A stretch of DNA of 64,000 bases. It comes from a virus. The notes below the pieces were generated by a model, which searched no databases, was not told the origin of the DNA, and saw only the letters and a list, made by a program, of their open reading frames with translations. The DNA is taken from the IMG/VR virus record IMGVR_UViG_3300030419_004857, positions 32,001 through 96,000 of that record. The stretch is one strand, 5' to 3'. The number at the start of each line of letters is the position of its first letter. The stretch's first letter is position 1. The position numbers and the translations under genes are program-made. Shown one piece after another: positions 4,723 through 32,500 of the stretch.

Positions 4723-5214
4723 ATGGCTATTAATATTCCGTCATCAGCGTTTGAAAAATTCAATGAGGCCATCCTTCTTTTCAACAGGACTGTAACTTTA
4801 GTTTATCCTGAAAAGAGAGATAGGTGTCCTAATTGTATAGTTAATACTATTGGTGGAAGGTCTATTAATACTTATAGAAGTGGTGGGGCTTTCCCATTCA
4901 GTAGAGGGGTTCTTTGTCCTTTATGCGGAGGTAAGGGTCTAAAGTTAACAGAGAATACCGAAGAAGTCCAGATGAGAGTTTACCACAATGCTAGAGATTG
5001 GGTAAAGATAGGATTTGAAGCGGATATCCCTAGTGGGTCAATTCAGACTATAATTTATATGTCTGATTATGTGAAAGTTGTAAAGGCAAAAGAGTTGTTG
5101 GTTGATGTAGGAAAATATAACAAGATGCGTTTCAAGAGACTGGGAGAGCCTTTTACACAAAGCTTGCAACAAAATCCTACACAATACGCCGTTGTTTTTT
5201 GGGAGAGGGTATAA
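4723..5214 (+). CDS. putative head-closure/neck protein with Zn-finger (CPNC...CPLCGG)
   Basis: Two CxxC motifs, beta-rich remainder, position in the neck cluster. Confidence 0.5.
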   Translation: MAINIPSSAFEKFNEAILLFNRTVTLVYPEKRDRCPNCIVNTIGGRSINTYRSGGAFPFSRGVLCPLCGGKGLKLTENTEEVQMRVYHNARDWVKIGFEADIPSGSIQTIIYMSDYVKVVKAKELLVDVGKYNKMRFKRLGEPFTQSLQQNPTQYAVVFWERV

Positions 5215-5888
5215 TGGCGGGAATAATTCCAGCACCGGGTTCAATTAATATAAAGCTTTTAGATACTGACGATATGATCGTTAGCTTGATAATGGCGGGA
5301 CTGGCTTCCAAGGCTAATGATGTAATTGATCGTGCTGCTAGAAAAAGTATATCACCTATTGGCGATGTCGTACAGGAGGCCGTTTTTAATTGTCCTGAGA
5401 TGGTAGAGTTAAGATCGGGAGTTCTCAGAGGAGAATTTGGTCTAACCAAAGGTAAAGCCCAGAGTGCCTCACAGGATATAGCCAAAAGGGTTGGCGATAG
5501 TATAATGGTCAGAGCGCATAAAGTTACATCTTTGGGTAGTTCATCAAAATTAAGAGGTGGAATCGAGATTTTGGTTCAGCCTATTGATTTTGGTAATGTT
5601 CTGTCCTCTCCTCTAGGAATGATTAGGTCAGAAAAAGGTGTACAATTACAATGGTTAGAATGGTTGCTGACTCTGGGAGATGCCGTTATTGTAGACGGTT
5701 ATGAATTCAGGGCCAAGCCGGGAAAGGGAAGAAGTGGATTAGGTGCTATGGCAGAAATGAAAACTGGCATATGGAGAGTCCCCCCTGAGTATGCTGGTAC
5801 AGAAGACAAGAACTTTATCACCAAAGCTTTAGACAATAGGAAGATTGGTGATAAAATTGCTTCAATTTTACAAAAAAATATGATGTAA
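5214..5888 (+). CDS. putative tail-completion/neck protein
   Basis: Start moved from 5199 to the ATG at 5214, which forms a TAATG overlap with the upstream stop. C-terminal P..AGT..NFITKAL; called from synteny. Confidence 0.45.
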   Translation: MAGIIPAPGSINIKLLDTDDMIVSLIMAGLASKANDVIDRAARKSISPIGDVVQEAVFNCPEMVELRSGVLRGEFGLTKGKAQSASQDIAKRVGDSIMVRAHKVTSLGSSSKLRGGIEILVQPIDFGNVLSSPLGMIRSEKGVQLQWLEWLLTLGDAVIVDGYEFRAKPGKGRSGLGAMAEMKTGIWRVPPEYAGTEDKNFITKALDNRKIGDKIASILQKNMM

Positions 5889-5904
5889 CCACAAAGGCTG
5901 TATC

Positions 5905-6969
5905 ATGGCAGAAAGCCACGCAAGATTAAATAAAATTAACAATGTGGGCGATACCAGTATAACCCCTGCGATTAGAGATAATCTTGTAGAGTTTTTTGAT
6001 TGGGCTATATTGGACGCTGGCGGATTCTTTAACGTAAATGTACCCACTGAAGGATTTTACGGGGGCGACAAACATAAGCTAAGAGTTGTTGACGATCCCA
6101 ATTATACCTTGGGGCAGGTGTGGGAGGGGTTCAGATCTAACTGGGTTTGGCAAAGTGGATTGTCATGCTCAGATCAACCTTTAGTTGTTCAAAAATTGTT
6201 GGAAGATAGTGAGTATCCTCTAGCGAAGCGATCACCGGGAATTTCCGGGGTCTTTATTGGGTCGACATTCCAGCCAGTGTCTGGAGTGGGAGATTACTCC
6301 CATCACATTAACTATCCAGCGGGGAGAGTGATCTTTGATAGTGCAATTTCCACCAGTAGCGATGTAAAGGTAGAATTTAGCTATAAATGGGTAAATGTTA
6401 TTCCGGCCAACAATGAGTTTTTTAGAGAGATCCAATATCGTTCTCAAAGAGCAGATGGAGATTTTACATTAGTGGGTTCTGGAGACTGGTCTCAGTTGGG
6501 TGAAACTAGGCTGCAACTACCGGCCATAGCGGTGGAGCCAACAGTTCGTAGAACTCATTCGCCCTTTAATTTAGGAAGCTCGGCATCTTATGTGGCCTCT
6601 GATGTTTTATTTCATGTTTTAGCAGAAGATGATTTTACAAGAGACAAGCTAGTTGACATGGTTTCTCTTCAAGGAGACAAGACTATTTTCATGTTTGATA
6701 GCGATAGAATTGGAAGAAGAGATGATTTTCCGTTAGATTACAGAGGAATGGTTGCGGCCAGCGGACAAAGATATCCAGAACTGGTTGCTCCTAGTGGTGA
6801 GGGAGGCTCCCCCGGTGCGGGGAAAGGATATAGAGTTGGTGCGTTGGCAGCGTCAGAAGGTAAATTTGACAGTTTACGACTTACTGAAGCTAGAGTGACC
6901 ACCACAAGCGCCTTAAGTCCGTCCTTATATCATGGGGTTGTAAGGATCACTACCGAGGCAATCATGTAA
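5905..6969 (+). CDS. putative tail terminator protein
   Basis: QLPAIAVE...DVLFHVLAEDDFTRDKLVD pattern; immediately upstream of the tail tube gene. Confidence 0.5.
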   Translation: MAESHARLNKINNVGDTSITPAIRDNLVEFFDWAILDAGGFFNVNVPTEGFYGGDKHKLRVVDDPNYTLGQVWEGFRSNWVWQSGLSCSDQPLVVQKLLEDSEYPLAKRSPGISGVFIGSTFQPVSGVGDYSHHINYPAGRVIFDSAISTSSDVKVEFSYKWVNVIPANNEFFREIQYRSQRADGDFTLVGSGDWSQLGETRLQLPAIAVEPTVRRTHSPFNLGSSASYVASDVLFHVLAEDDFTRDKLVDMVSLQGDKTIFMFDSDRIGRRDDFPLDYRGMVAASGQRYPELVAPSGEGGSPGAGKGYRVGALAASEGKFDSLRLTEARVTTTSALSPSLYHGVVRITTEAIM

Positions 6970-6983
6970 AAAACCCCCCATTT

Positions 6984-6993
6984 GGTGTATAAT
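6984..6993 (+). promoter_or_regulatory. GGTGTATAAT motif, copy 2 (upstream of tail tube gene)
   Basis: Intergenic, ahead of the AGGAG RBS and the ATG at 7034. Confidence 0.6.
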
Positions 6994-7033
6994 TAAACGA
7001 GCATAATATCCCCTCAACTAAGGAGAGAAAATA

Positions 7034-8056
7034 ATGCCTAATAGAGTATTTTGGGCGGGTCAAGGACTCGCTATTAACACAACTGTCAAAGCTCTGCACG
7101 AACCCGCCGCCGCCGATGCGGTCAACGTTCGTGGTATCCAGAGTGTTGGTATTACCACTACATTCAATCTAGAACAAGTTTTCCAACTTGGACAGCTTAC
7201 CGTATATGAAGATGTAGAAGATATTCCCGATATCGAAATTACGGTTGAAAGAGTACTTAACGACGATAAGAGTTTATATACTCTTACTGGAGCGGTTTCT
7301 GGTAATTCGCTCACCCAAAACCAAGACAAAACATTCGACGTGTATTTCGAAGTTCATAATGACGCGACCGAGAACATCGACGACGATGGAGGATTTCCAG
7401 CCGCACAAGCACATTGTTCGGGCTTGTATGTTTCTTCAATGAGTTGGACCTTCCCAACCGATGGAAACTGTACTGAATCGTTTACGTTTGTTGGTAATGG
7501 TAAAAAGTGGCAGTCTGGAAGCACAGTTGCATCGACTTATGACACCGATGGTATACCGACCGTGGTTGGCGAAGCCAAGGTTTGGCGTAGACAGCAGGTC
7601 GAACTGGAAACCATTCCAACTTCTGTTAACAACATGGATTCTACACCTAAAGTTATGAGTGCTTCAGTTAGTATCGATCTTGGTAGAGAAGCCATTAACG
7701 TTCTTGGCAAAAAACTACCTTATTATCGTTATGTGACTTTCCCAGTAGAAGTTACCTGTGAGCTTGAAGTTCTGGTTAGAGATGCTTACTCCGCAACCGA
7801 TAAGATGGCTGATGGTATTAATGCCGTTCCTGATCCGGGCGCTGGCAGTGGTTCTAACGTTACTGCTGAATCCATTAAAATTAAAGGAACTGGACGTGAG
7901 GCCGGTGGATACACCAAGGAGTGGAACTTGGGCGATAAGAATAAGCTTACTGGTGTCACTTGGGGTGGGGGATCGACCGGTGGTGAAAATGCCACTGTTA
8001 CGTTCTCATATAGAAACTTCAATGACTTTACTTATACCGAAACTGTTGTATCTTAA
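7034..8056 (+). CDS. major tail tube protein
   Basis: GIQSVGITTTFNLEQVFQLGQL..YE...P.IEITVER; beta-rich with two similar halves; strong RBS and own promoter motif; upstream of chaperone-like genes and the tape measure gene. Confidence 0.7.
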   Translation: MPNRVFWAGQGLAINTTVKALHEPAAADAVNVRGIQSVGITTTFNLEQVFQLGQLTVYEDVEDIPDIEITVERVLNDDKSLYTLTGAVSGNSLTQNQDKTFDVYFEVHNDATENIDDDGGFPAAQAHCSGLYVSSMSWTFPTDGNCTESFTFVGNGKKWQSGSTVASTYDTDGIPTVVGEAKVWRRQQVELETIPTSVNNMDSTPKVMSASVSIDLGREAINVLGKKLPYYRYVTFPVEVTCELEVLVRDAYSATDKMADGINAVPDPGAGSGSNVTAESIKIKGTGREAGGYTKEWNLGDKNKLTGVTWGGGSTGGENATVTFSYRNFNDFTYTETVVS

Positions 8057-8061
8057 GATAA

Positions 8062-8126
8062 AGGGGGGAACCCCTGTCAGTACGTATTGCGATAGCCACA
8101 GAGGATAGGCGAGTGAACGTACTGGC
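8062..8126 (+). promoter_or_regulatory. structured intergenic RNA (two hairpins) after the tail tube gene
   Basis: AGGGG-GGAA-CCCCT (8062-8075), then a 10-bp stem GTCAGTACGT (8076-8085) / ACGTACTGGC (8117-8126) with one G-U pair. Confidence 0.5.
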
Positions 8127-8191
8127 GTAATACATAAGGAACGAGAGGAAGGCTATGAAAAAAATTAAGTTCCCGTTTGTGAAATTTCATC

Positions 8192-9205
8192 ATGAAACTT
8201 CATGAGCGGGAATTTTTTGTATCAAGGATCATGTCTGGTCTATTGAAGTATGAAAAAGATGACTTGATTCTTTTTATGCACCCGTTAGATGCTGGACAGT
8301 ATTATGAGGCTCAAGAAGTATTTCAAAAAACTTACCGCGAGGCATTGTCTGAGGGGATAATGACAGAGGAAGAATGCTTGTTAATGCTTGTTGAGCATGG
8401 ATTGTGGAATGATGAAAAGCAGGAAACGATGGATGGGATAGAGAAGGATATGGAAACGTTAAAAATTGAAGTATTTGAAGGCTATTTTAAGGAATCTGTA
8501 AAAAATGCTGCTAAGGATCTCTTAAATAATGCCAAGATAAAATACAGCGAACTTCATGATGAAAGACATTCATATGATTTTGTTACCTGTTTAGGTGTTT
8601 CTACTTTTGCCAGATTTAATTGGATTATAGAAAATACCACCAAACATCTTGACGGAAGCATGTGTGATTGGGAAGAAATTTCTATGCAAGATGTTTTGAT
8701 GCATTTTCAAAAATCTCAGATACCGGAAGATGACTTTAGAGAATTGGCTAGGAGTGAACCTTGGAGAACTATGTGGTCCACCGGAAAAGCAAATGGCCAA
8801 CTGTTCGATAAACCGGGGATAGAGTTAACTGTAGAACAGAGGACTTTAATGGCGTGGTCTGGATTATATGATAGCGTACAAGAATCACCTGAAGCCCCGC
8901 CCGATGAATTGATAGAAGATAATGATGCTTTGGATGGTTGGCTTTTGGTTCAAAAACGAAACAGGGAAAGAGACAAGGCCAAAGAACAAGCCGACTCTCA
9001 GTTCGGTGACAAAACTATGAATGCTGACGAAGTAATTGTATTTGGAGATAAAGATAAAGTTAATGCTTTGAATACTCCAGAATCAAAATGGACTAAAGCT
9101 CAAAGAATGAAACAGTTAGCGGAGGCGGGAGACAAAGGTGTTCGATATGATAAGTTTGATGATATGGTTCAGAAAAGAATTATCGAACAAAATCAATCAA
9201 CTTAA
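8192..9205 (+). CDS. hypothetical protein, possible tail assembly chaperone
   Basis: Acidic, helical; lies between tail tube and tape measure genes; shares an E.G(L/I)WNDEKQ segment with the 9588 ORF. Confidence 0.5.
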   Translation: MKLHEREFFVSRIMSGLLKYEKDDLILFMHPLDAGQYYEAQEVFQKTYREALSEGIMTEEECLLMLVEHGLWNDEKQETMDGIEKDMETLKIEVFEGYFKESVKNAAKDLLNNAKIKYSELHDERHSYDFVTCLGVSTFARFNWIIENTTKHLDGSMCDWEEISMQDVLMHFQKSQIPEDDFRELARSEPWRTMWSTGKANGQLFDKPGIELTVEQRTLMAWSGLYDSVQESPEAPPDELIEDNDALDGWLLVQKRNRERDKAKEQADSQFGDKTMNADEVIVFGDKDKVNALNTPESKWTKAQRMKQLAEAGDKGVRYDKFDDMVQKRIIEQNQST

Positions 9206-9219
9206 ACGAAAGGAATAAA

Positions 9220-9585
9220 ATGGAAGACAGCTATGAAGAGTTAATCAGGCAGTCTGATAAATTTAAAACAGATAAGGAACAAAGATATAAGGAGGTATCT
9301 AAAGAGAGACTTCTTAAAATTGCCAAAAAGAAAATACAGACCACAATGATTGGGGCTTTAAGCTCACTAGAGAAGCATTTTGGTTTTCTTTGGGGACACG
9401 AACAAGAAGGAGAAGTAACTCCAGAACAGCAACATATGAAAGATCTTTATGAAGAAATTAGATCTGAAATATTAGATAAGGGAAATAACCAAATAAGGAA
9501 TCTTGAAACTGAATTTAGCTATTATGATATCACTTGGTTAAGATATCAAATGGTGTTACCTATGAAATCTCGTGAGGAGGGATAA
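9220..9585 (+). CDS. hypothetical protein
   Basis: AAGGA RBS; 121 aa helical ORF in the tail operon. Confidence 0.6.
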   Translation: MEDSYEELIRQSDKFKTDKEQRYKEVSKERLLKIAKKKIQTTMIGALSSLEKHFGFLWGHEQEGEVTPEQQHMKDLYEEIRSEILDKGNNQIRNLETEFSYYDITWLRYQMVLPMKSREEG

Positions 9586-9587
9586 AC

Positions 9588-10508
9588 ATGGCCGAAAGAC
9601 TAACAGTAAACTCTACAGATTCAAAAGGAAAAAAGAAGAAGGTAATCATCGTATTACCAAACGCTAAAATTAATAAAGACGCCCAGCTTGCGTATAATAA
9701 ATCATTTAGCGATGCTTTAAAGTCAGGAGCCATTCTTAGACAGAAGCTCGACCAAGTCATGCGAGAGCAGGGAATTTGGAATGATGAAAAGCAAAAAGAA
9801 TACGACCAGATCATGGTCGATATTAATGATAATGAAAAAAAGCTTGCTGGCGGTGGTATCGCTCTTAGCGAGGCCAAAGCGGTTGCTGTTGAAATGAGAG
9901 TTTTGCGCGAGCGATTCAGAGGCTTGATTGCCGAAAGAACCTCCATGGATGGCAATACGGCAGAAGGACAAGCCGACAATGCCCGGTTCAATTACCTAAC
10001 TTACGCCTGTATGCTGGATGAACAAGGGGATCGAATTTTTGATTCCTATGATCATTATGAAGAAACCGTCGAAGAGCCATACGTGGTTGATTCTGCCGCA
10101 GCTTTAGCAGAAAAACTTTATGGTCTAGACCCTTCATACGAGACTAACCTTCCTGAAAATAAGTTTTTACAGGATTATAAATTCGTTGACAAGGATCTGA
10201 GATTTGTTAACGGGGATGGTCATTTGGTTGATTTAGAAGGTAGGTTAATTGATGACGATGGAAGGTTTATAAAGTATGATGATGAAGGCAATAAGGTGTA
10301 TATTGATATAGAAGGAAACGTTGTAGACGAAGAAGGTGAGTATAAGTTAGACTTTTCTCCATTTTTAGATGATTCGGGTGATCCTGTACCCGTTCCTGCT
10401 AAAAAGGAAGAAAAGAAAGAGGAAGAGGTTAAGAGCGAAGAGAAAAAAGAGCAGCCCAAAAAGGGCCGCAAAAAGAAAGTTTCTGCTGAAGTAGAATCCC
10501 AAGAATAG
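9588..10508 (+). CDS. putative tail assembly chaperone with D-x-x-G-R/N-hydrophobic repeats
   Basis: GAGGAGG RBS; directly upstream of the tape measure gene; 7-aa repeats at about 10182-10343; Lys/Glu-rich tail. Confidence 0.55.
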   Translation: MAERLTVNSTDSKGKKKKVIIVLPNAKINKDAQLAYNKSFSDALKSGAILRQKLDQVMREQGIWNDEKQKEYDQIMVDINDNEKKLAGGGIALSEAKAVAVEMRVLRERFRGLIAERTSMDGNTAEGQADNARFNYLTYACMLDEQGDRIFDSYDHYEETVEEPYVVDSAAALAEKLYGLDPSYETNLPENKFLQDYKFVDKDLRFVNGDGHLVDLEGRLIDDDGRFIKYDDEGNKVYIDIEGNVVDEEGEYKLDFSPFLDDSGDPVPVPAKKEEKKEEEVKSEEKKEQPKKGRKKKVSAEVESQE

Positions 10509-10527
10509 TTTAATCATCCTTGGACAG

Positions 10528-10571
10528 TGGGTGTACTGCTTATCTTTATGGTAACGGTGCGCCCATTTTTT
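10528..10571 (+). terminator. intrinsic terminator/attenuator just upstream of the tape measure gene
   Basis: 11-bp stem TGGGTGTACTG / CGGTGCGCCCA with three G-U pairs, an inner TTATC/GGTAA stem, followed by T6. Confidence 0.6.
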
Positions 10572-10586
10572 ATGTGAGGCCAATAA

Positions 10587-13500
10587 ATGTCGTCTAGATT
10601 TGTTTTAACAGCACAGCTAAATCTGCAAGCTCCAGATGTTAGAAGAGTCGTAAGAGAAATACGCAGAGACTTGTCTGGAATTACCGTAGATCTCAGAGTT
10701 AAAAACGTTGACAAGATACGTAGAGACATTGATAAAGCCACCAAGTCCTTAAAAAGGATGGACAAGCAGACTAAAGCTAGTGCTACCGGCTTCGCAAAGC
10801 TAAGCAAGCAAATGGGTCAAGCCATTAAGAATGTTATTAGATATGACATTGCTAGAAGTGTAATTACCGGCTTTACTATGGCTCTTCGTGGAGGGGTACA
10901 AGAGGCTATAAAGTTTGAAAAAGAATTGATCAAGGTTGCTCAGGTTACAGGTAAGGCGACTTCCAATTTATCTGATCTTACAGGTGAAATCACTAAAATT
11001 GCCACCAAGTTTGGTGTATCTTCATCTTCTCTGGTAAAAACGTCTAGAGTATTAGCTCAGACTGGTATGGCTGCTAACGAAGTACAGAAGGCATTAAAAG
11101 CTCTGGCTCTTACCACTATTGCCCCCACCTTCGATGACATTTCCAATACTACAGAAACTACCATTGCGATGATGCGTCAGTTTGGTATTGCCGCCAAAGA
11201 CGTACAAAGAGAACTTGGTAGAATTAATGCAATAGCCGGTCAGTTTGCTGTAGAGTCTGCTGACATTGGTGTGGCCATTAGAAGGGCGGGTGGAGCTTTT
11301 AAATCTGCCGGTGGCCAACTGATGGAATTGGAAGCTCTGTTCACTAGTGTTAGAGCTACGACGCGAGAAACTGCGGAAACCATTGCTACCGGTTTCCGAA
11401 CCATTTTCACCAGAATGCAACGCCCAAAAACCATTAAATTCTTAAGGTCTATGGGTATAGAGCTACAAAACCTTCAAGGCCATTTTATAGGTCCATATCA
11501 AGCCGTTCAGAAACTTCATTATGCTCTTAAAGGTTTAGATCCACGAGACGTTAGATATTCACAGATCGTTGAACAGCTTGGTGGTTTTAGGCAGGTGTCT
11601 AAAGTTATTCCAATGATTCAGCAATTTGAAATGTCACAAAGAGCATTAAACGTGGCTATGGCTGGAGGAGGCTCTCTGGCTAAAGATGCGGCAAAAGCTC
11701 AAGAAGGTCTGGGAATTCAATTCACCAAGGTAAAAGAAGAATTTACCGCCCTGATGCGTGAACTTGCCATGAGTGAAGGTTTTAAGGCAATGGCAAAAAC
11801 TGTCTTGGCTCTAGCATCTGCTCTTATCTCATTAGCCAGCGCGCTTAAACCCGTTATTCCTCTCTTGACAATGCTTATGGTGGGCAAAGGTCTGTCAATG
11901 GGGGTGGGCTTTATGGGCAAGGGGCTGGGCAAGATGAAGGGGATGGCGAGGGGTGGAATAGTTCCCGGCAGGGGTAATGGTGATACTGTTCCCGCTATGT
12001 TAGAACCGGGCGAGTTTGTGTTGAGAAAGTCTGCTGTAAATGCTATTGGCGCTGGCAGGCTTGCTGGAATTAATAGGTATAATCGTGGCGGTAGAGTTAG
12101 GATGGCGGCTGGCGGAACGTTTGGTCCAGTGCAGCAGTTTGACAGCAATTCTGCTAGATCAAACATAATGAGGAAGAAAAGAAGAAATTATAATAAAGAG
12201 CGTGGTAAGGTATTTAAGGCCGGTGAGCACGCCTTTAATCCAGAAGACAATATCTCAATACCTCAATATTCGAAAAAGAGCTTAAACGCAGCGTCACTTC
12301 TGGGTACAATTAAATCAGAAAAAGCGGCCAATATAGCGAGGACATATCTCCGTGGTCCTTTTGGACAAGGCAGAGCATATGAACAACTTCTCCGTGGTGA
12401 ACATCGCACCGGCGCGAGGAAATACATGACACAAGCGCCCGGCACGGGTGGAACTCAGCCTTTTGACGGAATGTCAAGGGATGGTAAGTTTGTAGAAGCT
12501 AAATCTGTACAACGGTTCGACCGCCATGCGATTGGGGATAAGGCTCTTCAACAAGCCCTAAAAGGTTCCAAAAAATCGCAAATGGGCGCAATGACTCAGA
12601 ACAAAGATACGATAGGTATCTGGGGTATGAAAGTTAGGGCATATCAGGACAATCCCAAGTCCAGCCGAGAGGTAATTAAGGAACAATTAGGGATATGGGA
12701 TGCTAACGAGAAGAAGCGGGCTGATGCGGCGGCAAAAAAGAAAGCACTGAGAAAAAGAGGAAAGGGAGCAACAGGGGGTGTAGCTGTAGGAACCGATACT
12801 ATACCCGCGCTATTAACTCCGGGTGAGTTTGTTATAAATAGAAAATCTGCTAAAGCTTTTGGGTATGGAAATCTTGGTAAGCTTAATAAGTATGCAAAGG
12901 GTGGCGTTGTAGGCAGGCAAAGGTTTGCAGGGGGTGGTGAAGCTGCGGGCGGTGGTGGATTTATGAAGATCATGGGTCTTACCATGGCTATTGATATGAT
13001 CGTACAGATGACCACTACGATGGGAGGCGCGTCTGAGAAGACTCAAGAATTTGCAAATAAGTTAACGTCAGTAATTACTGGCATGGGCGTTCTTCTAATG
13101 GCTATCCAAAGTGAAGCGGCAGCTAGGATGGCTGGCCAAGTTAGGGGAATGAATATTCCCGTGGTGAGTTCTGCGATGTCAGGAAAGGGCTTGGGGGGTA
13201 GATTTGGTGCTGGTGGTGGTTGGGCTGGCGGGATTATAGATAAAAAAGCAATGAAAGGACACAAGATTTTCGGCAAAAGTATGTCGAGAGAAGCGTTTGA
13301 TAAAGGAATGGAGGCTCGTAAGCTTGCAAAGGCAGATGTTATGAGAGCAGCGGGATCGCCAATGAAGGGCACTGTCATGCACACTAAGGCTGTTGCGGAT
13401 GCTTCAAAGGCGGGAACGGAGGCGTTTAAAAAGACATCAGGCGCAATTATGAAAACGACTAAGGCCATGCGGGATCTTGCGCTGGTCATGGGTATGGCGG

Positions 13501-16500
13501 GCATGGCAGTAGAGATGTATGGAGATCATATACACGAACAGGGCAAAAAGGCGATAGAGGCGGGGAATTACGAAGAGGGCAGGATGAAGATGGTTAAGGG
13601 TGGGACGGCGGCAGGAGCAGGGATGGGTATGGCTATTGGGTCTATTCTTGGACCCTTTGGCGCTGCTATTGGCGGGCTGGTTGGAGGATTGTATGGATAT
13701 TGGAAGTCGGTTAAAGAATCTGCCGAACTGATTGAAAGGGTGAAATTTGGAGAGCAATTAAAGCATTTCAAAAATGCCCTAAAGGCTGTAACAGAGGGCA
13801 AGGCGTCTCCGATGGCGGCTGCTGCAAGTATTTCTGCTGGAGTTAAAGCACTAAAAGACAGATTTAATACTCTTGCTAATGCTGCTGATGTTGATGAGTT
13901 GCAAGGGGAAATTAAAAATGCCGTGCCAGCACTCCAAGCTTATATAGATAAAGTCGCTGAAAATGTTACAAGTTTCGCACAGCTAGAAAATGTGGTTGGT
14001 AAGGATACTTTTAGAACATTCTCCCAGTTTTCTAAAATCCCCGTAAGCAAGCTGAGAAAACAATACACAGAACAAATTGCCTTGATGCAGAAATCTAAGA
14101 CTGCTCAGGCTAAGATGTTAGCGGTGATGGAACAACAAACCAGAACAATGTTGATGGTTCGTGATGTTACTAATTCTTTTGCTGCGTTAGAAGCGGGCTT
14201 GCTTACTTTTGATACCGCTCTGGATAATTTAAGCCAGTCTATGAACAACAGCTTCACTGTCAGCGCTGGCGGTAGTATGGCTCCAGCGTTTAAGAACTTG
14301 GAGTCTATAGTTGATTTTGCTGGCTTTGGAAAAAGGGTGGACGCTTTAGCTGGTATGATGGAGCCTTTTTCTGGTGGAATGGCAGAACAAGTTAAGTCTG
14401 CTGCGGTAGTAATGAGAGACCTTCCCGCCATCCTCTTAGAGGCTAGTAACGAAATTGGGGTTGCTGGTGCAGATGCCGGAACCATTATTATGGACAAGCT
14501 GGACCAAGCTGACGTTGGCGGTTTTCTTACAGATAGCATGAAGCGTGGCTTATCGGCTCAAATAGAAGCGTTTACCCTTGGAGAGGGTGGCGGTGGTAAA
14601 CTGGCCGATATGATCAAGAAAGATCTTGATGGAGTTATTAAGCGTCTGACCAAGGGCGTTTTGACATCTCTCAAGGCTTTCCAAAAAGCCGCCGAATTCT
14701 TCGACAAAGCTAATGCCAGACTAGCTAAAGCATTCCAGCTAAGAAATCAAATTGACCAAAAGATTTTAAATACTAGAATAAAGCTGGAAAAAGTTGAAGC
14801 TGATCATGCCGCACGTCTAAGGAGGGCTAGAGGACAAAAGGCAGATCCCACAGCCCAAAGAGATATGTTCCAAAGACAACAGGCGGTGAGAGCACAGGCT
14901 GCTGGAGTAGCACCCGGTGGAGGCATGAATGTTCAAGGGCTTTCCCAAGAATTTAATTTGCTAAAAGTTAGGATTCAGGCGAGTAACCAACAGTTGGCAC
15001 AACAGGGGCTTGATCCTGCGCAGTTGGCGGGAACACAGAACCTGCTTGATAGCCAGAAGAAGTTGATTGAGCAAAATGCAAATCTCAAAAAACAATTTGC
15101 TGCCACTAAGGATGCATTAGTAGCGTTTGCTGATACCGCGAGTAGAGTAGCGGAGATAGAAAGAAGTCTTGCCGAAGAGAAGAAGTCAAGAGAAGCAAAG
15201 AGGGGCGTTGTTTCCGAGTTTACCTTTGGTACAGACGAGAACAGAAAGCAGCTAGCCCAGTCATTAAATACTACATTCGCTGCTGCTGCGGCGGGAACTA
15301 TTTCTTATGTTGATGAAAAGATGCGTCCCGCCGTAGGAAAAATCTTAGACAGGTTCAAAGACGTAGAGCTACCGGGGCTTGGCGGTAAGACTGGCGGCGA
15401 AGTTAAAAAGGAAATGGAGATTGATTATCTGGAGAGCGTGTTTGGACCGCTTACCGCCGCTCAGAAAAAGCAGATTTTTGAGAGAACCACAGCAGAAGAA
15501 CAACTTATTAAGGAAATGCAGAAAGTTCAAAAGGACGCTTTAGATGCCCAAAAGGCTCTCCTACAAGGCTTAAAGGATGATAGACGCCAAGCTAATCAAG
15601 AAATTACACAGCTTCATGAAAATTTGGTTAACGGGCTAGAAAGAGTTCTTACCGAGCAAAACAAAAGACAGATGCAAAGAGAGTTAGGGCAAGAGAAAAG
15701 CACTAAACAGTCTGCTGATAAGACTCTTGCTGTTTTAACTAAGCTTCAGGCAGATATTGGTGGTGCTGGAGTTGCTGATCTTTCTACTGGTCAGGGCATG
15801 GAGCAATTTAGGAATATGATGCCTGCTATGGTGAAGGCGCAAGAAGCGCAAGCGGAACAGGCAAGAATTGCGGCCAGTGGTGTTCAAGCGGTTTATGAAA
15901 GTGCTCGTAAGGATACATCTATGACCAGTACTGGTTTTGAAGATGTGTTTGCACCGATGGGGCGTGGGGCGGGCATGGGTATCGATTGGGATATGAAAGA
16001 TCTTTCCCATGCTCAGGACTTGATGGAATCTTATATTAGGGATAATGTTAAGGATCAAGAGATTGCAGACGCAATGATCATGGATGGTAAGAATAAGATG
16101 GCGGAAGCGTTTAAAGCGGGTATGGATATTGATGATGCAGGCGTAGTATTAGAGGGTGTTTTTGCTAGCGTTGCCAAAGGACAGATGGATCAGCATCAGA
16201 AGACCATAGACGCTGCTCATCAACTGGCAAAAGCCCAAAATCTAACAACCGTTCAGTTTAACAATCTTGTAACTCACGCCAGTCAATTCTCAACGGTCCT
16301 AAAAAATATTCCAAGCGGAGCCAATATAAAGGACTTGTCTGATGCTTCTCAGACTGCGGCTGGAAACATTCAACAGCTAGATACCAACATTCAGGGCGCA
16401 AACGCAAGATTAGGCCAACTTGGCCAACCCGGCGTTGGTGGACGGGTTCAGACTCTAGCGGTGGGCGGTGTGGCCTTTTCTCCTAAAGGAACTGACACAG

Positions 16501-19313
16501 TACCGGCCATGTTAACCCCCGGTGAGTTCGTAGTTAATAGAAAATCTGCCCAAGCTAATATGGGGACTTTAAAAGCTATTAATGCTGGATATTATTCGGG
16601 TGGTGGCGAGGTGCAGTTGCAAATTCCACATCAAATGAGATACTTCGATTCCACTAAAGATCTTACGGAAAAATCTATTTCTTCATGGAATCCTGCCGAA
16701 CATATAAATAAACCCATGCTGGCTCTCTATAAGACACTTTCTGAAGCAAAACAAGGCATGAAAAGTGTTCCATTTTGGCTTAATGATCCCAAGGCGATGG
16801 ATTGGACTCCGGGGGATACACCTACTGAGGGCATTAATGCAATCATAGGTCATATGATGGGGACGGGTGGTCTGAAAAATCTGCCTTCTGAGGAGTTTAA
16901 ACACGCATATATGCAGTGGATAAAGGGGGGGATGCCCGGAAGCGAAAAAGGAGTAGAAGGTGTAATGCTCGGTGGAAATGATCCGAGTTGGTGGAATTAC
17001 AACAAAGAGAGCGGAGCGGTTTGGACGGATGTAAAAGGTCTGCAACGGGACATGCTCGGAGATTCGCATGCACTTTCTGGCAAATGGTTGGAAGCGAGTA
17101 AAGGATTTGGGGTTGGTACTACCCAAATAGTCTCAGGGAGCGTTTCCGGCGGCGTCGGGGGTCGTGGTCATGGTGGGGACACGACCACAGTGTCGACCCA
17201 CGTGATTCGCCGTCGTCCCGGCCAACAGATACCGGGATTGTGGGCGCAGATGAGACTAAATAATGGAGCCAAGATATTCAAGTTGAGCGAAATAGCAAAA
17301 TCAGGAATAAAAGCTGATATGCATAAGTATTCTGATGGTATCTGGAATATTGGCCCCAATATACAAGGACAAAGCACCCAATATACATCCTTGAAGAAGA
17401 GTACGGGTCTACACAACAGTGGCAGGCAGATGGAGGTTGATGGGCCTAATGGAACCTTAAGTCAGGTCTTCGACTGGGGCGCATTTTTAAAATCTTCTTC
17501 AGAAGGGAAAGCGTTTGTAGACAGATATCAACAGTTTGCGAATGATAAGGCAAACTATGTGGGAACCTTAGCGGCTAATTGGCTGGCTGGAAAAAAGGAA
17601 GAAGCCGTGGTGGCTGCTAGTGATCCCAAGTTAGCAAGGGAATTGATACAGGGTCTTTATACTCATATTGATCAGGCGGGGATTGGGAGGGACTTTTCGG
17701 GTCTTAGTGGTGAAATAGACATGGCGAATCTTCCAATTGGCGGCAGAAGGCAGCTAGGTGGGATTGGATCGAGCACATTGAGACTGCCCGATGTCTTAAG
17801 GTGGGCTTTTAACGATACGATATTTGGTGAGAGAGGCATTTTAGCCAAGATGATGCTAGATTCGGACTCGTGGATCAAAAAAGCAAAGAATGATCACGGC
17901 GTTGCCTCTGCCGCGCTTAAACAAATGTATAACCACGAAACTCCCCATCACTTTATTGGACACATATTTGATCAATATGGTTTTTCAGATATAGGAAAAA
18001 GTGTAGAAGAAAAAAGAGCTACAGATAAACAGGCGAAAAAGCAAGACTTTGACGATGCGACCGCAGCGCGAATATCCGATGCTAATATAGCAATCTATGG
18101 CGCTAATGAGGTGGGAAAGGCTTTCATTAAAAAAGCGTTTGGAGACTCAGCATTTAGAAGAATGAGACTGCCGGGTTACGCAAGAACGAACTTGGAACTC
18201 AATAACCGACAAGGAACATTACAGAGCGCACTTGCTAAGCGTGGATTTTGGAATAAGGGTAAACCGGCAGGAGGTGATGCGTCCCCAGCATGGTTCACAG
18301 GAGCCATATTCCCCACTATCATGAACTGGATTGACATTTTAGATAAGACCCAGCAACGTTGGGGAATAATTTCGGCTTCTGATGGTAAATCCTCTTTCGA
18401 ATGGGACGAAGCTAGGGTTTTGGCTAAGATAGAAGAAGAGCGTTTGGAAAATCCGAAGGCTGCTGGGGGTAAGGGTAGCATGTTTAGTGCGGTGAATGGC
18501 TTTATAAGAATGATCACGCCAAGCATGAGTCCATTCGATAAAAAACATCCATTTCAACAAGGGGGCATCTCAGGCAGTATGAAAACCGGTGGGGCGGCGG
18601 AAGAAGCATTTACTAGAGCCATTTTTAGCGGAGCCGCAGGATATTATCAAGCCGTTGCTGCCGCATCAGAAGCTTTGACAAAGACGGTTGACGAAACATA
18701 TCAGTTGACTCCAGAAGGATTAATGAAACAACAAAAGAAGAAGGCCGCGCCAACAAAACCGACTCGACCGAAAAATGTTCTTGGGATGGCTCAAGGAGGA
18801 GCGGTTAGCTCCGCGATGTTCGTTCCTCAAGGCACTGATACCGTTCCCGCCATGTTAACTCCCGGCGAATATGTAATAAGAAAATCCTCTGTGGATGCTT
18901 TGGGGGTTGAGTTCCTAGATTATCTGAATAACTCCAGTCAGAAATCTACCGGAAGAAAATATAGCAGGGGTGGTCAAGTTCAATATCTACAGGAGGGGGG
19001 TGAAAAGACTGCTGGAGGCGCCAAGCTTGATAGTAGTGCTTTTGATGCAAGTGTAAAACACTTTTCTACTATTGTAGACAAACTTAGTAACATAACTTTG
19101 GGCGGATCACTAACGGTTGATGGTACAGTTAATGTGAATGTTAATCTCAATGGTCATGAAGTTCTTGCGGAAGCCAAATCAGAACTTGGTCGAGCGGCTG
19201 GTGATAAGATCGATGGAGGAATCATTTCCATGCTAAAGGCTCACTTCCCTAAGATTCATCCGAAATTATCATACAGTAGTCCAGAAGGTCCGTCGCATCC
19301 GGGGCCACCATAG
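10587..19313 (+). CDS. tail tape measure protein (2908 aa) with embedded cargo regions
   Basis: TP901/PhageMin_Tail-like core (FEKELIKVAQVTG...LAQTG...AIRRAG...TRETAETIATGFRTIFTR), hydrophobic and glycine-zipper segments, long coiled coils, four G.DT(V/I)PA(M/L)L.PGE(F/Y)V motifs. Confidence 0.9.
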   Translation: MSSRFVLTAQLNLQAPDVRRVVREIRRDLSGITVDLRVKNVDKIRRDIDKATKSLKRMDKQTKASATGFAKLSKQMGQAIKNVIRYDIARSVITGFTMALRGGVQEAIKFEKELIKVAQVTGKATSNLSDLTGEITKIATKFGVSSSSLVKTSRVLAQTGMAANEVQKALKALALTTIAPTFDDISNTTETTIAMMRQFGIAAKDVQRELGRINAIAGQFAVESADIGVAIRRAGGAFKSAGGQLMELEALFTSVRATTRETAETIATGFRTIFTRMQRPKTIKFLRSMGIELQNLQGHFIGPYQAVQKLHYALKGLDPRDVRYSQIVEQLGGFRQVSKVIPMIQQFEMSQRALNVAMAGGGSLAKDAAKAQEGLGIQFTKVKEEFTALMRELAMSEGFKAMAKTVLALASALISLASALKPVIPLLTMLMVGKGLSMGVGFMGKGLGKMKGMARGGIVPGRGNGDTVPAMLEPGEFVLRKSAVNAIGAGRLAGINRYNRGGRVRMAAGGTFGPVQQFDSNSARSNIMRKKRRNYNKERGKVFKAGEHAFNPEDNISIPQYSKKSLNAASLLGTIKSEKAANIARTYLRGPFGQGRAYEQLLRGEHRTGARKYMTQAPGTGGTQPFDGMSRDGKFVEAKSVQRFDRHAIGDKALQQALKGSKKSQMGAMTQNKDTIGIWGMKVRAYQDNPKSSREVIKEQLGIWDANEKKRADAAAKKKALRKRGKGATGGVAVGTDTIPALLTPGEFVINRKSAKAFGYGNLGKLNKYAKGGVVGRQRFAGGGEAAGGGGFMKIMGLTMAIDMIVQMTTTMGGASEKTQEFANKLTSVITGMGVLLMAIQSEAAARMAGQVRGMNIPVVSSAMSGKGLGGRFGAGGGWAGGIIDKKAMKGHKIFGKSMSREAFDKGMEARKLAKADVMRAAGSPMKGTVMHTKAVADASKAGTEAFKKTSGAIMKTTKAMRDLALVMGMAGMAVEMYGDHIHEQGKKAIEAGNYEEGRMKMVKGGTAAGAGMGMAIGSILGPFGAAIGGLVGGLYGYWKSVKESAELIERVKFGEQLKHFKNALKAVTEGKASPMAAAASISAGVKALKDRFNTLANAADVDELQGEIKNAVPALQAYIDKVAENVTSFAQLENVVGKDTFRTFSQFSKIPVSKLRKQYTEQIALMQKSKTAQAKMLAVMEQQTRTMLMVRDVTNSFAALEAGLLTFDTALDNLSQSMNNSFTVSAGGSMAPAFKNLESIVDFAGFGKRVDALAGMMEPFSGGMAEQVKSAAVVMRDLPAILLEASNEIGVAGADAGTIIMDKLDQADVGGFLTDSMKRGLSAQIEAFTLGEGGGGKLADMIKKDLDGVIKRLTKGVLTSLKAFQKAAEFFDKANARLAKAFQLRNQIDQKILNTRIKLEKVEADHAARLRRARGQKADPTAQRDMFQRQQAVRAQAAGVAPGGGMNVQGLSQEFNLLKVRIQASNQQLAQQGLDPAQLAGTQNLLDSQKKLIEQNANLKKQFAATKDALVAFADTASRVAEIERSLAEEKKSREAKRGVVSEFTFGTDENRKQLAQSLNTTFAAAAAGTISYVDEKMRPAVGKILDRFKDVELPGLGGKTGGEVKKEMEIDYLESVFGPLTAAQKKQIFERTTAEEQLIKEMQKVQKDALDAQKALLQGLKDDRRQANQEITQLHENLVNGLERVLTEQNKRQMQRELGQEKSTKQSADKTLAVLTKLQADIGGAGVADLSTGQGMEQFRNMMPAMVKAQEAQAEQARIAASGVQAVYESARKDTSMTSTGFEDVFAPMGRGAGMGIDWDMKDLSHAQDLMESYIRDNVKDQEIADAMIMDGKNKMAEAFKAGMDIDDAGVVLEGVFASVAKGQMDQHQKTIDAAHQLAKAQNLTTVQFNNLVTHASQFSTVLKNIPSGANIKDLSDASQTAAGNIQQLDTNIQGANARLGQLGQPGVGGRVQTLAVGGVAFSPKGTDTVPAMLTPGEFVVNRKSAQANMGTLKAINAGYYSGGGEVQLQIPHQMRYFDSTKDLTEKSISSWNPAEHINKPMLALYKTLSEAKQGMKSVPFWLNDPKAMDWTPGDTPTEGINAIIGHMMGTGGLKNLPSEEFKHAYMQWIKGGMPGSEKGVEGVMLGGNDPSWWNYNKESGAVWTDVKGLQRDMLGDSHALSGKWLEASKGFGVGTTQIVSGSVSGGVGGRGHGGDTTTVSTHVIRRRPGQQIPGLWAQMRLNNGAKIFKLSEIAKSGIKADMHKYSDGIWNIGPNIQGQSTQYTSLKKSTGLHNSGRQMEVDGPNGTLSQVFDWGAFLKSSSEGKAFVDRYQQFANDKANYVGTLAANWLAGKKEEAVVAASDPKLARELIQGLYTHIDQAGIGRDFSGLSGEIDMANLPIGGRRQLGGIGSSTLRLPDVLRWAFNDTIFGERGILAKMMLDSDSWIKKAKNDHGVASAALKQMYNHETPHHFIGHIFDQYGFSDIGKSVEEKRATDKQAKKQDFDDATAARISDANIAIYGANEVGKAFIKKAFGDSAFRRMRLPGYARTNLELNNRQGTLQSALAKRGFWNKGKPAGGDASPAWFTGAIFPTIMNWIDILDKTQQRWGIISASDGKSSFEWDEARVLAKIEEERLENPKAAGGKGSMFSAVNGFIRMITPSMSPFDKKHPFQQGGISGSMKTGGAAEEAFTRAIFSGAAGYYQAVAAASEALTKTVDETYQLTPEGLMKQQKKKAAPTKPTRPKNVLGMAQGGAVSSAMFVPQGTDTVPAMLTPGEYVIRKSSVDALGVEFLDYLNNSSQKSTGRKYSRGGQVQYLQEGGEKTAGGAKLDSSAFDASVKHFSTIVDKLSNITLGGSLTVDGTVNVNVNLNGHEVLAEAKSELGRAAGDKIDGGIISMLKAHFPKIHPKLSYSSPEGPSHPGPP
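11943..18975 (+). repeat. four dispersed ~45-60-aa GG..G.DTVPAMLTPGEFV..RKS repeats in the tape measure protein
   Basis: Copies at about 11943-12092, 12765-12905, 16455-16605 and 18786-18975. Confidence 0.9.
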
Positions 19314-29574: not shown

Positions 29575-32500
29575 ATGGCTATAGGCGACAATTTTGACAC
29601 AACTCCTCCGGGGTATACAAACCAGACCACTGGAAGGAAGTCTGGCCATGGCGTAATTAGTCAGTATCCGGGTCATTATACCGACGACAATCAAGGACAT
29701 CCTTGTAATATAGGATGTGGCTGTAAATCCGCTTGTAGATCTGGAACTGAGTCCGATCCCGCCGCTAGATGCACACTACCCCCAGAGCTAACTATATATA
29801 TTACTAAAGCTGGAAGTAGAACTTCGGCTAGACAGAACATCTCCTCAAACCAATCCACTGAGATAGTACACCTAGTTTATACTAAAGCTTTGGGCGGGGT
29901 TGGCGCTTGGAGAGGTAGAAAATGTTGTCAATTTGACGCAAATGGCAACGAGCTTTGCGATCCATGTGATGTTACTACCGACAAAGATGGAAATAAAACA
30001 GATTGTTCATATAGTGGTCAAGAAGGGACAACACGTAATCGTCCGATATTCCACCCGACGACCGGACAACTGATTGGCCATAGCACTGGTCCCCCCGGAG
30101 GCACTAGAAGAAATGATCTAAATATGCCTGACGGAGATCCGGCTGGTGGTAGATGTCTTCAAGATGGAGACACTCCAAATCAGTTTATGGCTTGTAGGTC
30201 TTATACAGATGCCAATTTCAACAATCTTTATGGACAAGTGAATTTTGAACAGTGTCATAACGGATTTTGTATTGATGGTGCTGGAAATGTTTTGGGTTAT
30301 GATAAAAGAGCTTGTTGTGCTGGTGGATTTACTTGGAAATATCCCCGCTGCTTAGACAGTTCTGGAAATCCGGTTGGTGGTAGCTGTGCAGGAGATGCGT
30401 TAGATGGTTCGGATTGTAGTACTAAATCCGAGTGTGATTGTACGTTAGCAGAAGGCTGCGCGTGGGTGGAGGAATTTGATGAATGGGAATGTTCTGCGCA
30501 GTATAAATCTAGCGGATACACATGGTCTCATAGCTGGATTACTGACCCCTCATCCGCAGATGTAAACGAATGTTGTGGTGGTCAGATTATTTCTGACAAG
30601 GCCCCATCTCATCAACCTGCCGTATCTGGTGGTGGAGGTGAAGGATCTTTAGAGAAAGCAAAGGGGCAGCTTACCTGTATTACTCCTTATAAGGAATATA
30701 TTCTTATACCCGGCGGCGCGCCTAACTTTCAATATGGGTGTAAAGCTGTAGACAATCCAACTCCAGAAGTTAGAAATGATCTTGGAAAAGCTGGCTCGGC
30801 AGGCGTATTTACTTTAATTATAAGAGAGTGTAACTATAACGATAATTGTCTTGATTCACCTAGCGCGCAAGATGATAGTTTGATAGGAAAAGAGACCGTT
30901 TTATATATACCAATTGATCAAATGATTAATTGTTCTGATTTTCGTCTTCCATTTGATCAAAGAACTGCTGAGTTAGGAAATCCAGCAGGGTTTTATCCAG
31001 AAGACGTAAACTGGTGTAATGATCCAGACGAAAATCGTGATGGTACTGCGGACATTAACGGAGAAGGATGCTCTCGTTTTTTGTATCAGGAAAGCGGCGT
31101 GATTCGAGATCGTACTATATATGAGAATGGGGCGCATCAGCTACATCAATTAAACTTGCAGGCCCAGCCATTCAAAGCAACAGAAAGTAACCAGTTAACG
31201 GCTAAAAGTTTAGATCAAGCAAGAGCAGATCAAGCAGCCCACTATGGCTGTGTGTGCGGGGCTGGAGTAGATTGCCCAGACTGTTTAATGGACATAAATC
31301 ACGGATTGGCATATTGGTTTGAAAATGATTTTGTTGGCACTGATTCGGCTTGTTCACAAGCCCGAACTCAAATTAAAGGTATTATTGATGGAGCGGCTAG
31401 TGCGAGAGAGGTATGGAGTTGTCATGATGATTGTGGTGACCCGTCTGGATACTTACATTATTGGTCTGGAGGATTAGAAGGTATAATTTATAGTTCGTCT
31501 CTGGTTGGAGACAGCGGTCTTTATACCGGAAGATTGGGCTATTGGGGCGCTACTGGATTATATCCTGCAAACATATATACTCCATATCAGCCTGAAAATA
31601 GTACTCCACCCATTAGCCACACTTTGGATAATTGTTATGGCTCTCATAGAGGGGGAAGATCTGGAGTTGTGGAGTTTGCCAGTAATACTTCTCCCATAGT
31701 GATTAAATCTACCAATCATGGTCTTGTGGACGATGATTTTATCAGCGTCAAGGGGGTTCTGGGCAATTTTAGCGCCAACACCTTGACGCTCGCAGAATGG
31801 AAGGCTATTTCTTGGCAGGATAAGCTGGGAGATGGTTGTGATGGGGAAGAGTGTCCTAAAATCTTTAATCCTCCGGGGCTTTGCGAAACAGCACCGTTTG
31901 ACACCAGCGGACTAGCAAGCGGATCAATAAGTCTACCTTTATGGGTTGTGGAGATTGTAGATAAAGACCATTTCCTCCTAAAGGACTGCAATGGAGATTA
32001 TAGCGATGGAACAATAGATTTTGCGCCCCAGTGCGATTCCACCTTCACCTGTGTAGATTATCTTGCCAACACAGTTGAAGTATGCCCTTGTAATACGCTT
32101 GACAATGTTCCAGATGTGATTTCATCAACCGCCGTTGATCTGTTAACAGATGAAGCTACATGTAAAACTTACGGTTATTGTCAGATTGTTTCGGGGTATC
32201 CAGACCCAAACACTATGATGACCAAGGACGACTGCATAACCCTAGCTAAGAAATATTCTCTATACGACGGAGGCGGAACTGCGCTTAATCCCGCCTTCCC
32301 CGGATCTTGTACAGATGGATGTAATGGAAGCTCCGTTGCTGCATCAGATTATCAAGACTGTATAGCTAAAACCAATAGTGGTTGTCCACCCAATGGGTGG
32401 GCAAATCCAAATTATCATTCCTGCGTGTCAGTTGTTGACAATGTTGCAAACTTTGATGCGTGTTGGTCAGGACACGATTGGAAGCCTGCCTCTACTGCCG

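Follow-up and report, generated by a model that had tools for sequence, protein, structure and literature searches.

A conserved nuclease-like domain in a repeat-bounded slot of giant phage tail tape measure proteins

The tail tape measure protein (TMP) encoded by the virus record IMGVR_UViG_3300030419_004857 of IMG/VR (161,265 bp, complete by CheckV) was found to contain, between the first two copies of a conserved repeat module, a discrete and strongly basic domain that resembles nucleases of the restriction endonuclease (REase) fold. The domain, designated type A, lies within the window analysed here, a stretch of 64,000 nucleotides corresponding to positions 32,001 to 96,000 of the record, and it occupies the whole of what we term slot 1, defined as the stretch from the first to the second DTVPAMLTPGEFV module. 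Judged from sequence, the TMP is best read as a polyvalent protein carrying a conserved nuclease-like module of the REase fold, which would be ejected together with the rest of the protein at infection. The features on which this reading is based are as follows, with amino acid (aa) positions numbered along the TMP.

10587..19313, + strand: TMP gene (product P0001, 2,908 aa), identified from the open reading frame (ORF) list, the translation, PF10145 and PHROG
11949..12122, + strand: repeat module R1 (aa 455-512), GDTVPAMLEPGEFV...YNRGG
12129..12770, + strand: type A nuclease-like domain (aa 515-728), filling all of slot 1, from iterative profile search and alignment A7
12171..12209, + strand: N-terminal basic stretch RKKRRNYNKERGK (aa 529-541); this part is also basic in the homologues
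12354..12581, + strand: conserved core (aa 590-665), with G595-x-x-Y-E599, P-F-D627-G, F-V-E637-A-K639-S and I-G-D-K652
12735..12764, + strand: C-terminal basic stretch KKKALRKRGK (aa 717-726); homologues have K/R-rich linkers before R2
12762..12935, + strand: repeat module R2 (aa 726-783), GTDTIPALLTPGEFV...YAKGG

Three short strings in the core, GRAYEQ (aa 595-600, 12369-12386), PFDG (aa 625-628, 12459-12470) and GKFVEAKS (aa 633-640, 12483-12506), had been singled out in a preliminary description of this DNA, and all three, like the two basic stretches, lie where it had placed them, to within 3 nucleotides. The motif is not significant in a single sequence, since the loose pattern E-x(20-35)-D-x(6-12)-[DE]-x-K was present in 25% of shuffles of the type A segment; it is lifted above chance because the residues are conserved across distant homologues. 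In alignment A7, which comprises 14 sequences (13 distinct at the profile level) with identities to the window copy as low as 16%, residues E599, D627 and K652 were invariant, and G595 and E637 were at least 90% conserved. The third acidic residue, E637, is replaced by Asp in one lineage (L211), which fits the (D/E)xK pattern, and at position 639 most members have Lys but L006 and L112 have Arg. Conservation falls into the blocks G-x-x-(F/Y/W)-E-x-x-L, P-(F/L/V/I)-D-(G/F) and h-(E/D)-h-(K/R), followed by a helix with the invariant Lys, and pairwise identities between homologues ranged from 16% to 32%. The E ... D ... (D/E)-x-K order of a PD-(D/E)xK catalytic set was found in type A and, on the evidence of the alignment, the invariant residues and their order are those of a PD-(D/E)xK active site and are the only positions to have survived the divergence. 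It was these same E...D...ExK residues that the preliminary description had picked from one sequence, and their conservation in distant relatives upholds that choice.

A HMMER single-sequence search of 1.84 billion representative proteins with the type A domain returned four true homologues, namely two Tara Oceans fragments (P0003 and P0005), P0006 from an ENA contig (L002) and a fragment of 48 aa. A further match from this search, P0004 (7,361 aa), was rejected as false, being repetitive and compositionally biased. Additional TMP relatives were fetched via the repeat module and via the N-terminal region of the protein, and profile iteration over those loci located type A in 18 ORFs, 13 of them distinct, all of which were TMPs carrying the domain immediately after R1. 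No match was obtained with tblastn of the domain against 50,697 phage records; word-indexed homology searches with the single sequence, the A1 profile or the A7 profile yielded known members only, or nothing, and a metagenome pattern scan recovered only the relative L005 (93% identical).

The net charge of the type A segment is +26 across 214 aa, a value that suits nucleic-acid binding. Together with the basic flanks it agrees with an earlier remark that the insert is highly basic at both ends, and the insert as a whole is a discrete conserved domain.

A related domain was encountered in the same slot of other TMPs. Alignment of 96 non-redundant slot-1 segments gave the majority consensus G..FE ... 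FDF..G ... DAK ... K, and this second domain, designated type B, was searched for with a seed taken from the matching part of L002 after exclusion of the repeat; it has the blocks G..(F/L)E, (F/I)DFP.GLG, PT(D/E).KRT and K. Type B was found in 99 of 137 slot-1 segments of related TMPs, typically just upstream of R2, and one or other of the two types in 117 of the 137 slots. Types A and B were matched by hhalign with a probability of 78% (E 1.9e-5), the four motifs being in register, and with a probability of 43% (E 2.5e-4) when an independent alignment was employed. The two occur together, A before B, in L002, L010, L120 and L211, and the window TMP has type A only. By these profile comparisons, type A belongs as one branch to a superfamily of domains, itself a near-standard part of a large clade of giant TMPs, the clade being that of uncultured, mostly aquatic phages. 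The domain had been portrayed in the preliminary description as embedded cargo; the discrete and conserved nature of the insert supports this picture, and its being a one-off or sporadic passenger does not stand, since the superfamily fills the slot in most of the clade. Single-linkage clustering of the slot-1 segments was uninformative, with all of them falling into one component.

Comparison with known nucleases was made principally through Mrr_cat (PF04471), an accepted family of the PD-(D/E)xK superfamily that comprises the catalytic domains of restriction endonucleases of the Mrr type, for which a template was assembled from 26 domains of bacterial genomes. Alignment A7 was matched to this template by hhalign over 52 columns with a P value of 8.4e-4, and the FE, D and (E/Q)xK positions were in register. 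Control comparisons with the reversed A7 and with 20 column-shuffled versions gave P values of 0.09-0.97, and none of the 21 reached the score of A7. Type A and Mrr_cat share in register an 'x-F-E-x-x-L' helix, the strand Asp and 'h-(E/Q)-h-K'; they differ in that type A has ExK and P-F-D-G where Mrr has QxK and D-G-G-I-D, in the extra invariant Lys that type A has on the next helix, and in the lack of a hidden Markov model match between them. Mrr is, moreover, a standalone restriction enzyme, whereas type A is embedded in a virion protein.

Signature residues are also shared with two families of the polymorphic toxin systems, Tox-REase-5 (Y, FDG, EAK, Y, Q, W) and Tox-REase-7 (GxxxE, IxD, ExK, Q), as defined by Zhang et al. 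(2012; PMC3482391), in that both 'FDG, EAK' and GxxxE/D/ExK occur in type A with spacing that matches these signatures. The Tox-REases are delivered into another cell, a fate that type A may share. Language-model features from the ESM-Atlas ranked two Tox-REase-7 clusters at the top with a score of 0.89, a result that has the strength of a lead only. The preliminary description had taken E...D...ExK as the PD-(D/E)xK signature of the Tox-REase domains; the first half of that claim gains from the in-register alignment with Mrr_cat, and the second half falls short in that no Tox-REase model matched. On the basis of these alignments, we consider it probable that the type A domain has the PD-(D/E)xK fold.

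A number of results pull in the opposite direction. The hhalign probability for Mrr_cat was just 24%, and sequence and profile searches of Pfam, NCBIfam, PHROG and the PDB with all type A members gave no consistent match. No match to Tox-REase-5 (PF15648) was obtained by hmmscan of 14 type A members at E values up to 10; hhalign against a shallow Tox-REase-5 alignment of five members (P 0.016) aligned only FDG...EAK, and the downstream Y, Q and W of that signature were not seen in type A. A six-frame search of the whole phage genome for Tox-REase-7 (PF15649), again at E values up to 10, gave no match, hhalign against a shallow alignment of two Tox-REase-7 members gave nothing, and the conserved Q of that family is Lys in type A. 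Nothing was returned from the ESM-Atlas for a distant type A member, and no standalone or toxin-context homologue of type A appeared in the homology searches. Type B, for its part, showed no similarity to Mrr_cat, Tox-REase-5 or Tox-REase-7 by hhalign, and in several of its copies (L097, L124, L228, L194, L244, L206, L141, L145 and L103) the Lys of (D/E)xK is replaced and an Arg stands one position on, so that the blocks read D-A-T-R, D-T-T-R, D-I-T-R or D-V-T-R. These copies may be inactive, or may have had the basic residue shifted; given them and the two members of type A that have Arg, catalysis need not extend to every copy. AlphaFold2 models of aa 515-728 had a predicted local distance difference test (pLDDT) score of 51 from the single sequence and of 50 from a 6-sequence alignment, with the core below 50; given these scores in both runs and the want of a Pfam, PDB or Tox-REase match, the REase core is unconfirmed. 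Unreliable as they are at this confidence, the DSSP assignments placed helices at E599 and K652 and short strands at D627 and E637, followed by a hairpin, a pattern which is compatible with the REase fold but cannot carry weight.

Much of this would also be explained if the domain were an enzyme or binding module of a different fold, its E/D/ExK likeness being coincidental; its substrate might then be found in the envelope, for instance lipid, peptidoglycan or a phosphorylated sugar, and its action be part of penetration. Such a domain would have no matching nuclease family model and might be predicted with low confidence, the bare motif is frequent among shuffles, membrane-like hydrophobic segments lie right behind R2, and the TMP enzymes characterised so far are mostly cell-wall hydrolases. 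It is nevertheless an improbable explanation, for the in-register Mrr_cat alignment surpassed all 21 controls, the order, spacing and hydrophobic context of G-x-x-F/Y-E, P-x-D and h-E-h-K are typical of a REase core, and a positive charge this extreme is better explained by a nucleic-acid than by an envelope substrate.

The slot in which the domain is found is bounded by modules of ~50 aa that occur four times in the TMP, at aa ~455-512, 726-783, 1959-2016 and 2740-2797, and that have the consensus G-x-D-T-V-P-A-M-L-T-P-G-E-F-V ... N ... Y-A-x-G-G. R1 and R2 are genuine copies, and the segment is indeed embedded between two conserved repeats, as had been described. The remaining two copies lie further downstream.

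16461..16634, + strand: repeat module R3 (aa 1959-2016)
18804..18977, + strand: repeat module R4 (aa 2740-2797)

In ~150 related TMPs the DTVPAMLTPGEFV module stands right behind the N-terminal region, with two to six copies per protein; it may be a slot boundary, a processing site or a point of contact with the tube. The length of slot 1 among relatives varies from 100 to 1,870 aa. A Pfam census of the 96 slot-1 segments (loci L007-L244, alignment A9) identified ADPrib_exo_Tox (PF03496) in four (best E 7e-7), ART (PF01129) in one and HTH_3 in one, and a HAD-like DxDxT domain was found in L002, between type A and type B. Whether homologues carry different domains in this position had been raised in the preliminary description, and they do, ADP-ribosyltransferase and HAD-like domains being instances. 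Slot 1 therefore holds what is looked for in a polyvalent protein, that is, several unrelated enzyme or effector domains that vary among relatives.

The longer slots were composite. In L002 (ENA contig ctg136690), slot 1 runs in the order type A, HAD-like DxDxT domain, further pieces with 'A-x-G-G' linkers, type B and R2. The TMP of this contig, at 4776-10853, is split into four overlapping frames, probably through sequencing frameshifts, because the contig name indicates 2x coverage. The slot of 1,870 aa is that of L211 (L211:11912-17521), and it combines type A and type B with a region related to cytidylyltransferases (PF16581, E 2.4e-7). No Pfam match above the cut-off was obtained for five other slot-1 segments of 1,100-1,800 aa, one weak sub-threshold PF16581 match being present in L101.

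The variety of occupants bears on the suggestion that type A contributes only to the structure of the TMP and has no enzymatic function. It might, for example, be where the tail assembly chaperone, the tube or the terminator docks, with its charges conserved to form salt bridges, and its role would be over once the TMP is ejected. Its fixed place right behind R1 in every member and its lack of a detectable family would both accord with docking, as would the comparison with L005 (97% identical to the window), from which the type A domain of the window differs by 12.5 non-synonymous and 1.5 synonymous differences, counts that are too small to interpret. Half of these differences sit in one patch of eight residues, and the ratio does not look like strong constraint. 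Even so, a docking element would not be expected to share its position with unrelated enzyme domains in relatives or to reside in a slot of such variable length, and the sole invariant residues of type A are the classic catalytic set; we regard a purely structural role as very unlikely. The patch itself (aa 691-698, 12657-12680) reads KSSREVIK in the window and QFSKKGIT in L005, a change of six residues out of eight between identical flanks, which could reflect a compensated frameshift or local diversification.

TMPs fill the tail tube and leave the virion ahead of the DNA, and a domain embedded in one of them would be carried along. In the mechanism that we propose, type A would be a metal-dependent, nuclease-like module of the REase fold, most likely of the PD-(D/E)xK class, with E599 in the first helix and K652 in the helix after the two neighbouring strands that carry D627 and E637-x-K639. 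These strands would form a metal-dependent phosphodiesterase site, and the domain would exit with the TMP at infection and act on nucleic acid at the site of entry, where host or competing DNA, a component of a defence system or the end of the incoming genome are candidate targets. A precedent is provided by gp96 of Thermus phage P23-45, a TMP of 5,002 aa whose N-terminal part is a virion RNA polymerase that acts in the host after ejection (Nat Commun 2024;15:317, PMC10770324). The type A domain is probably delivered at infection, given that a TMP is ejected ahead of the DNA and that the gp96 enzyme acts in the cytoplasm. We judge the chances to be about even that a REase-fold nuclease-like module is ejected along with this TMP and has nucleic acid as its target during entry.

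Some observations on the genome sit uneasily with this mechanism. No matches to thymidylate-synthase-like, N6/N4 DNA methylase or C5 DNA methylase families were detected across the whole 161,265-bp genome and, with these three DNA-modification families absent, there is no clue to self-protection. No immunity-like partner was present among the Pfam matches of the neighbouring genes, Imm52 itself not having been specifically searched for. It is also not obvious that a folded domain of 210 aa could fit the lumen of the tail tube in three copies. Taken together, the lack of a toxin-context homologue, of an immunity partner and of a common DNA modification weighs against the shredding of host DNA.

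A role in handling the phage's own DNA would relieve several of these difficulties. Within the tail or neck, the domain would then bind the leading end of the genome, which it might also nick or trim, and would pilot it through a channel made by the downstream hydrophobic segments, acting as a nuclease-fold clamp or end-processing module, perhaps with weak turnover or none. In structures of siphophages and myophages, the TMP N-terminus is near the neck and the DNA end, and type A, at aa 515-728 of 2,908, is near the N-terminal region, in the head-proximal quarter of the protein. Its net charge, the K/R-rich linkers on each side, the near-universal presence of A or B in the clade in place of a sporadic cargo, the loss of the Lys in some copies and the lack of self-protection genes in the searches for DNA modification all speak for such a role. 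We nonetheless think it unlikely, because the invariance of three acidic residues together with a Lys is a requirement of catalysis and not of binding alone, because a single clamp role leaves the co-occurrence of types A and B in four of the loci unexplained, and because its neighbours among the cargo of relatives are enzymes of host-directed kinds, ART for example.

If the ejected nuclease-like module is taken to its fullest extent, the giant TMP would be a modular injection vehicle in which DTVPAMLTPGEFV modules mark the swap slots, and types A and B would be unrecognised PD-(D/E)xK nucleases that cut DNA at entry. This is conceivable, though somewhat doubtful. Equally tentative is the suggestion, within the same proposal, that the DNA cut would be that of the host or of a rival element, or else the nucleic-acid component of a defence system, and that type A would represent the first nuclease effector to be carried by a TMP.

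TMPs are usually seen as rulers or channel formers that occasionally bear a wall-cutting motif, and embedded peptidoglycan hydrolase motifs are present in mycobacteriophage TMPs and in Pb2 of phage T5. As in those proteins, the module described here lies inside the TMP and would be used at entry; unlike their wall-acting modules, it is very basic and bears a signature of the nuclease type. Enzymes embedded in TMPs (wall hydrolases and the P23-45 RNA polymerase) and polyvalent injected proteins are thus already known, whilst the literature searched was not found to describe any family of PD-(D/E)xK-like domains occupying a TMP slot bounded by repeats. The parallel with gp96 extends to a giant TMP with an N-terminal nucleic-acid enzyme, putative in the case of type A; gp96 has a two-barrel RNA polymerase of demonstrated activity, whereas type A is small, nuclease-like by its motifs and situated in a repeat-bounded slot.

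Swappable enzyme domains, ART and nucleases among them, are also a feature of the polyvalent proteins of phages and conjugative elements (Iyer et al. 2017, cited in PMC7824862), which are large, have several domains and are presumed to enter the recipient along with the DNA. Most of them are separate virion or transfer proteins, whereas type A sits in the tape measure. Contractile injection systems have Sle1 effectors, which are related to TMPs and are reported to combine a TMP-like scaffold with exchangeable functional domains (PMC13277306). Neither a repeat-bounded slot nor the type A family features in the passages on polyvalent proteins and Sle1 that were consulted. The precedents of gp96 and Sle1 support delivery in general and not for this TMP in particular.

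The Tox-REase-5 and Tox-REase-7 domains differ from type A in that no Pfam model of theirs matches it and that no immunity gene is evident beside it, within the limit already given for Imm52. Tox-REase-5 does occur in phages; the copies found there, in the P2-like temperate phages vB_HM795 of Burkholderia (L249) and RSA1 of Ralstonia (L250), form toxin-immunity cassettes in which a standalone gene adjoins one of the 'immunity 52 family', and they are neither TMP domains nor virion proteins.

Should type A reach the cell as an active nuclease, it would be a phage effector of a new class, made in advance and at work before any phage gene is expressed, with a bearing on host takeover, superinfection competition and anti-defence, and it would add an unannotated family to the PD-(D/E)xK superfamily. 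The architecture of the slot, moreover, suggests a natural scaffold for the loading of proteins into phage tails.

The identity of the protein that carries the domain is well supported. PF10145 (PhageMin_Tail) matched aa 136-333 with an E value of 6.9e-25 and 88.5 bits (cut-off 33.2), and PHROG families annotated as tail length tape measure protein (phrog_4211, phrog_167, phrog_28 and others) matched the first ~450 aa, a region that had 236 relatives in IMG/VR at 40-58% identity. By these family matches the product of 10587-19313 (+) is a phage tail tape measure protein, which is also how the preliminary description had read it. Two further features of the protein were recorded.

10992..11585, + strand: PhageMin_Tail domain (aa 136-333, PF10145), inside the conserved N-terminal TMP region (aa 1-455)
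12954..13166, + strand: Gly-rich, hydrophobic, membrane-like segments (aa ~790-860) right behind R2, from the translation

The genes upstream of the TMP encode products of 340, 337, 121 and 306 aa, in the same order as in the related contig L002, in which the counterpart of the 340-aa gene has a faint Phi812_tail_tube match. Downstream lie large unannotated structural genes, including one for an 895-aa product with a Laminin_G_3 domain, and most of the neighbouring genes are without any family. Placement in a tail module is indicated by the gene order shared with L002, the great length of the protein and the Gly-rich hydrophobic stretches after R2. A glycine-zipper match was also present at aa 1005-1040 of the TMP, and the Gly-zipper_Omp and C19orf12-like matches in this protein were both under the Pfam cut-off. 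The 64-kb window encodes zero tRNA genes.

Matches to the DTVPAMLTPGEFV module numbered more than 500 stretches in IMG/VR, and 338 were located in contigs of bacterial genomes or metagenome-assembled genomes (MAGs) of many phyla. Many of these 'bacterial genome' matches are short contigs in MAG bins of diverse phyla that hold near-complete phage tail modules, for example L006 (NZCP01000025.1, binned as Candidatus Woesebacteria) and L007-L084. They are probably mis-binned phage contigs rather than prophages, and for that reason say little about the host.

A second variable region may exist in the TMP. In comparison with L005 (VTLG01014416.1), the protein was 92-100% identical per block of 100 aa, with the exception of aa 2001-2500, where identity fell to 28-61%. 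This region (16587-18086 of the window), which has no Pfam family and follows R3, has the appearance of a mosaic or fast-evolving second slot.

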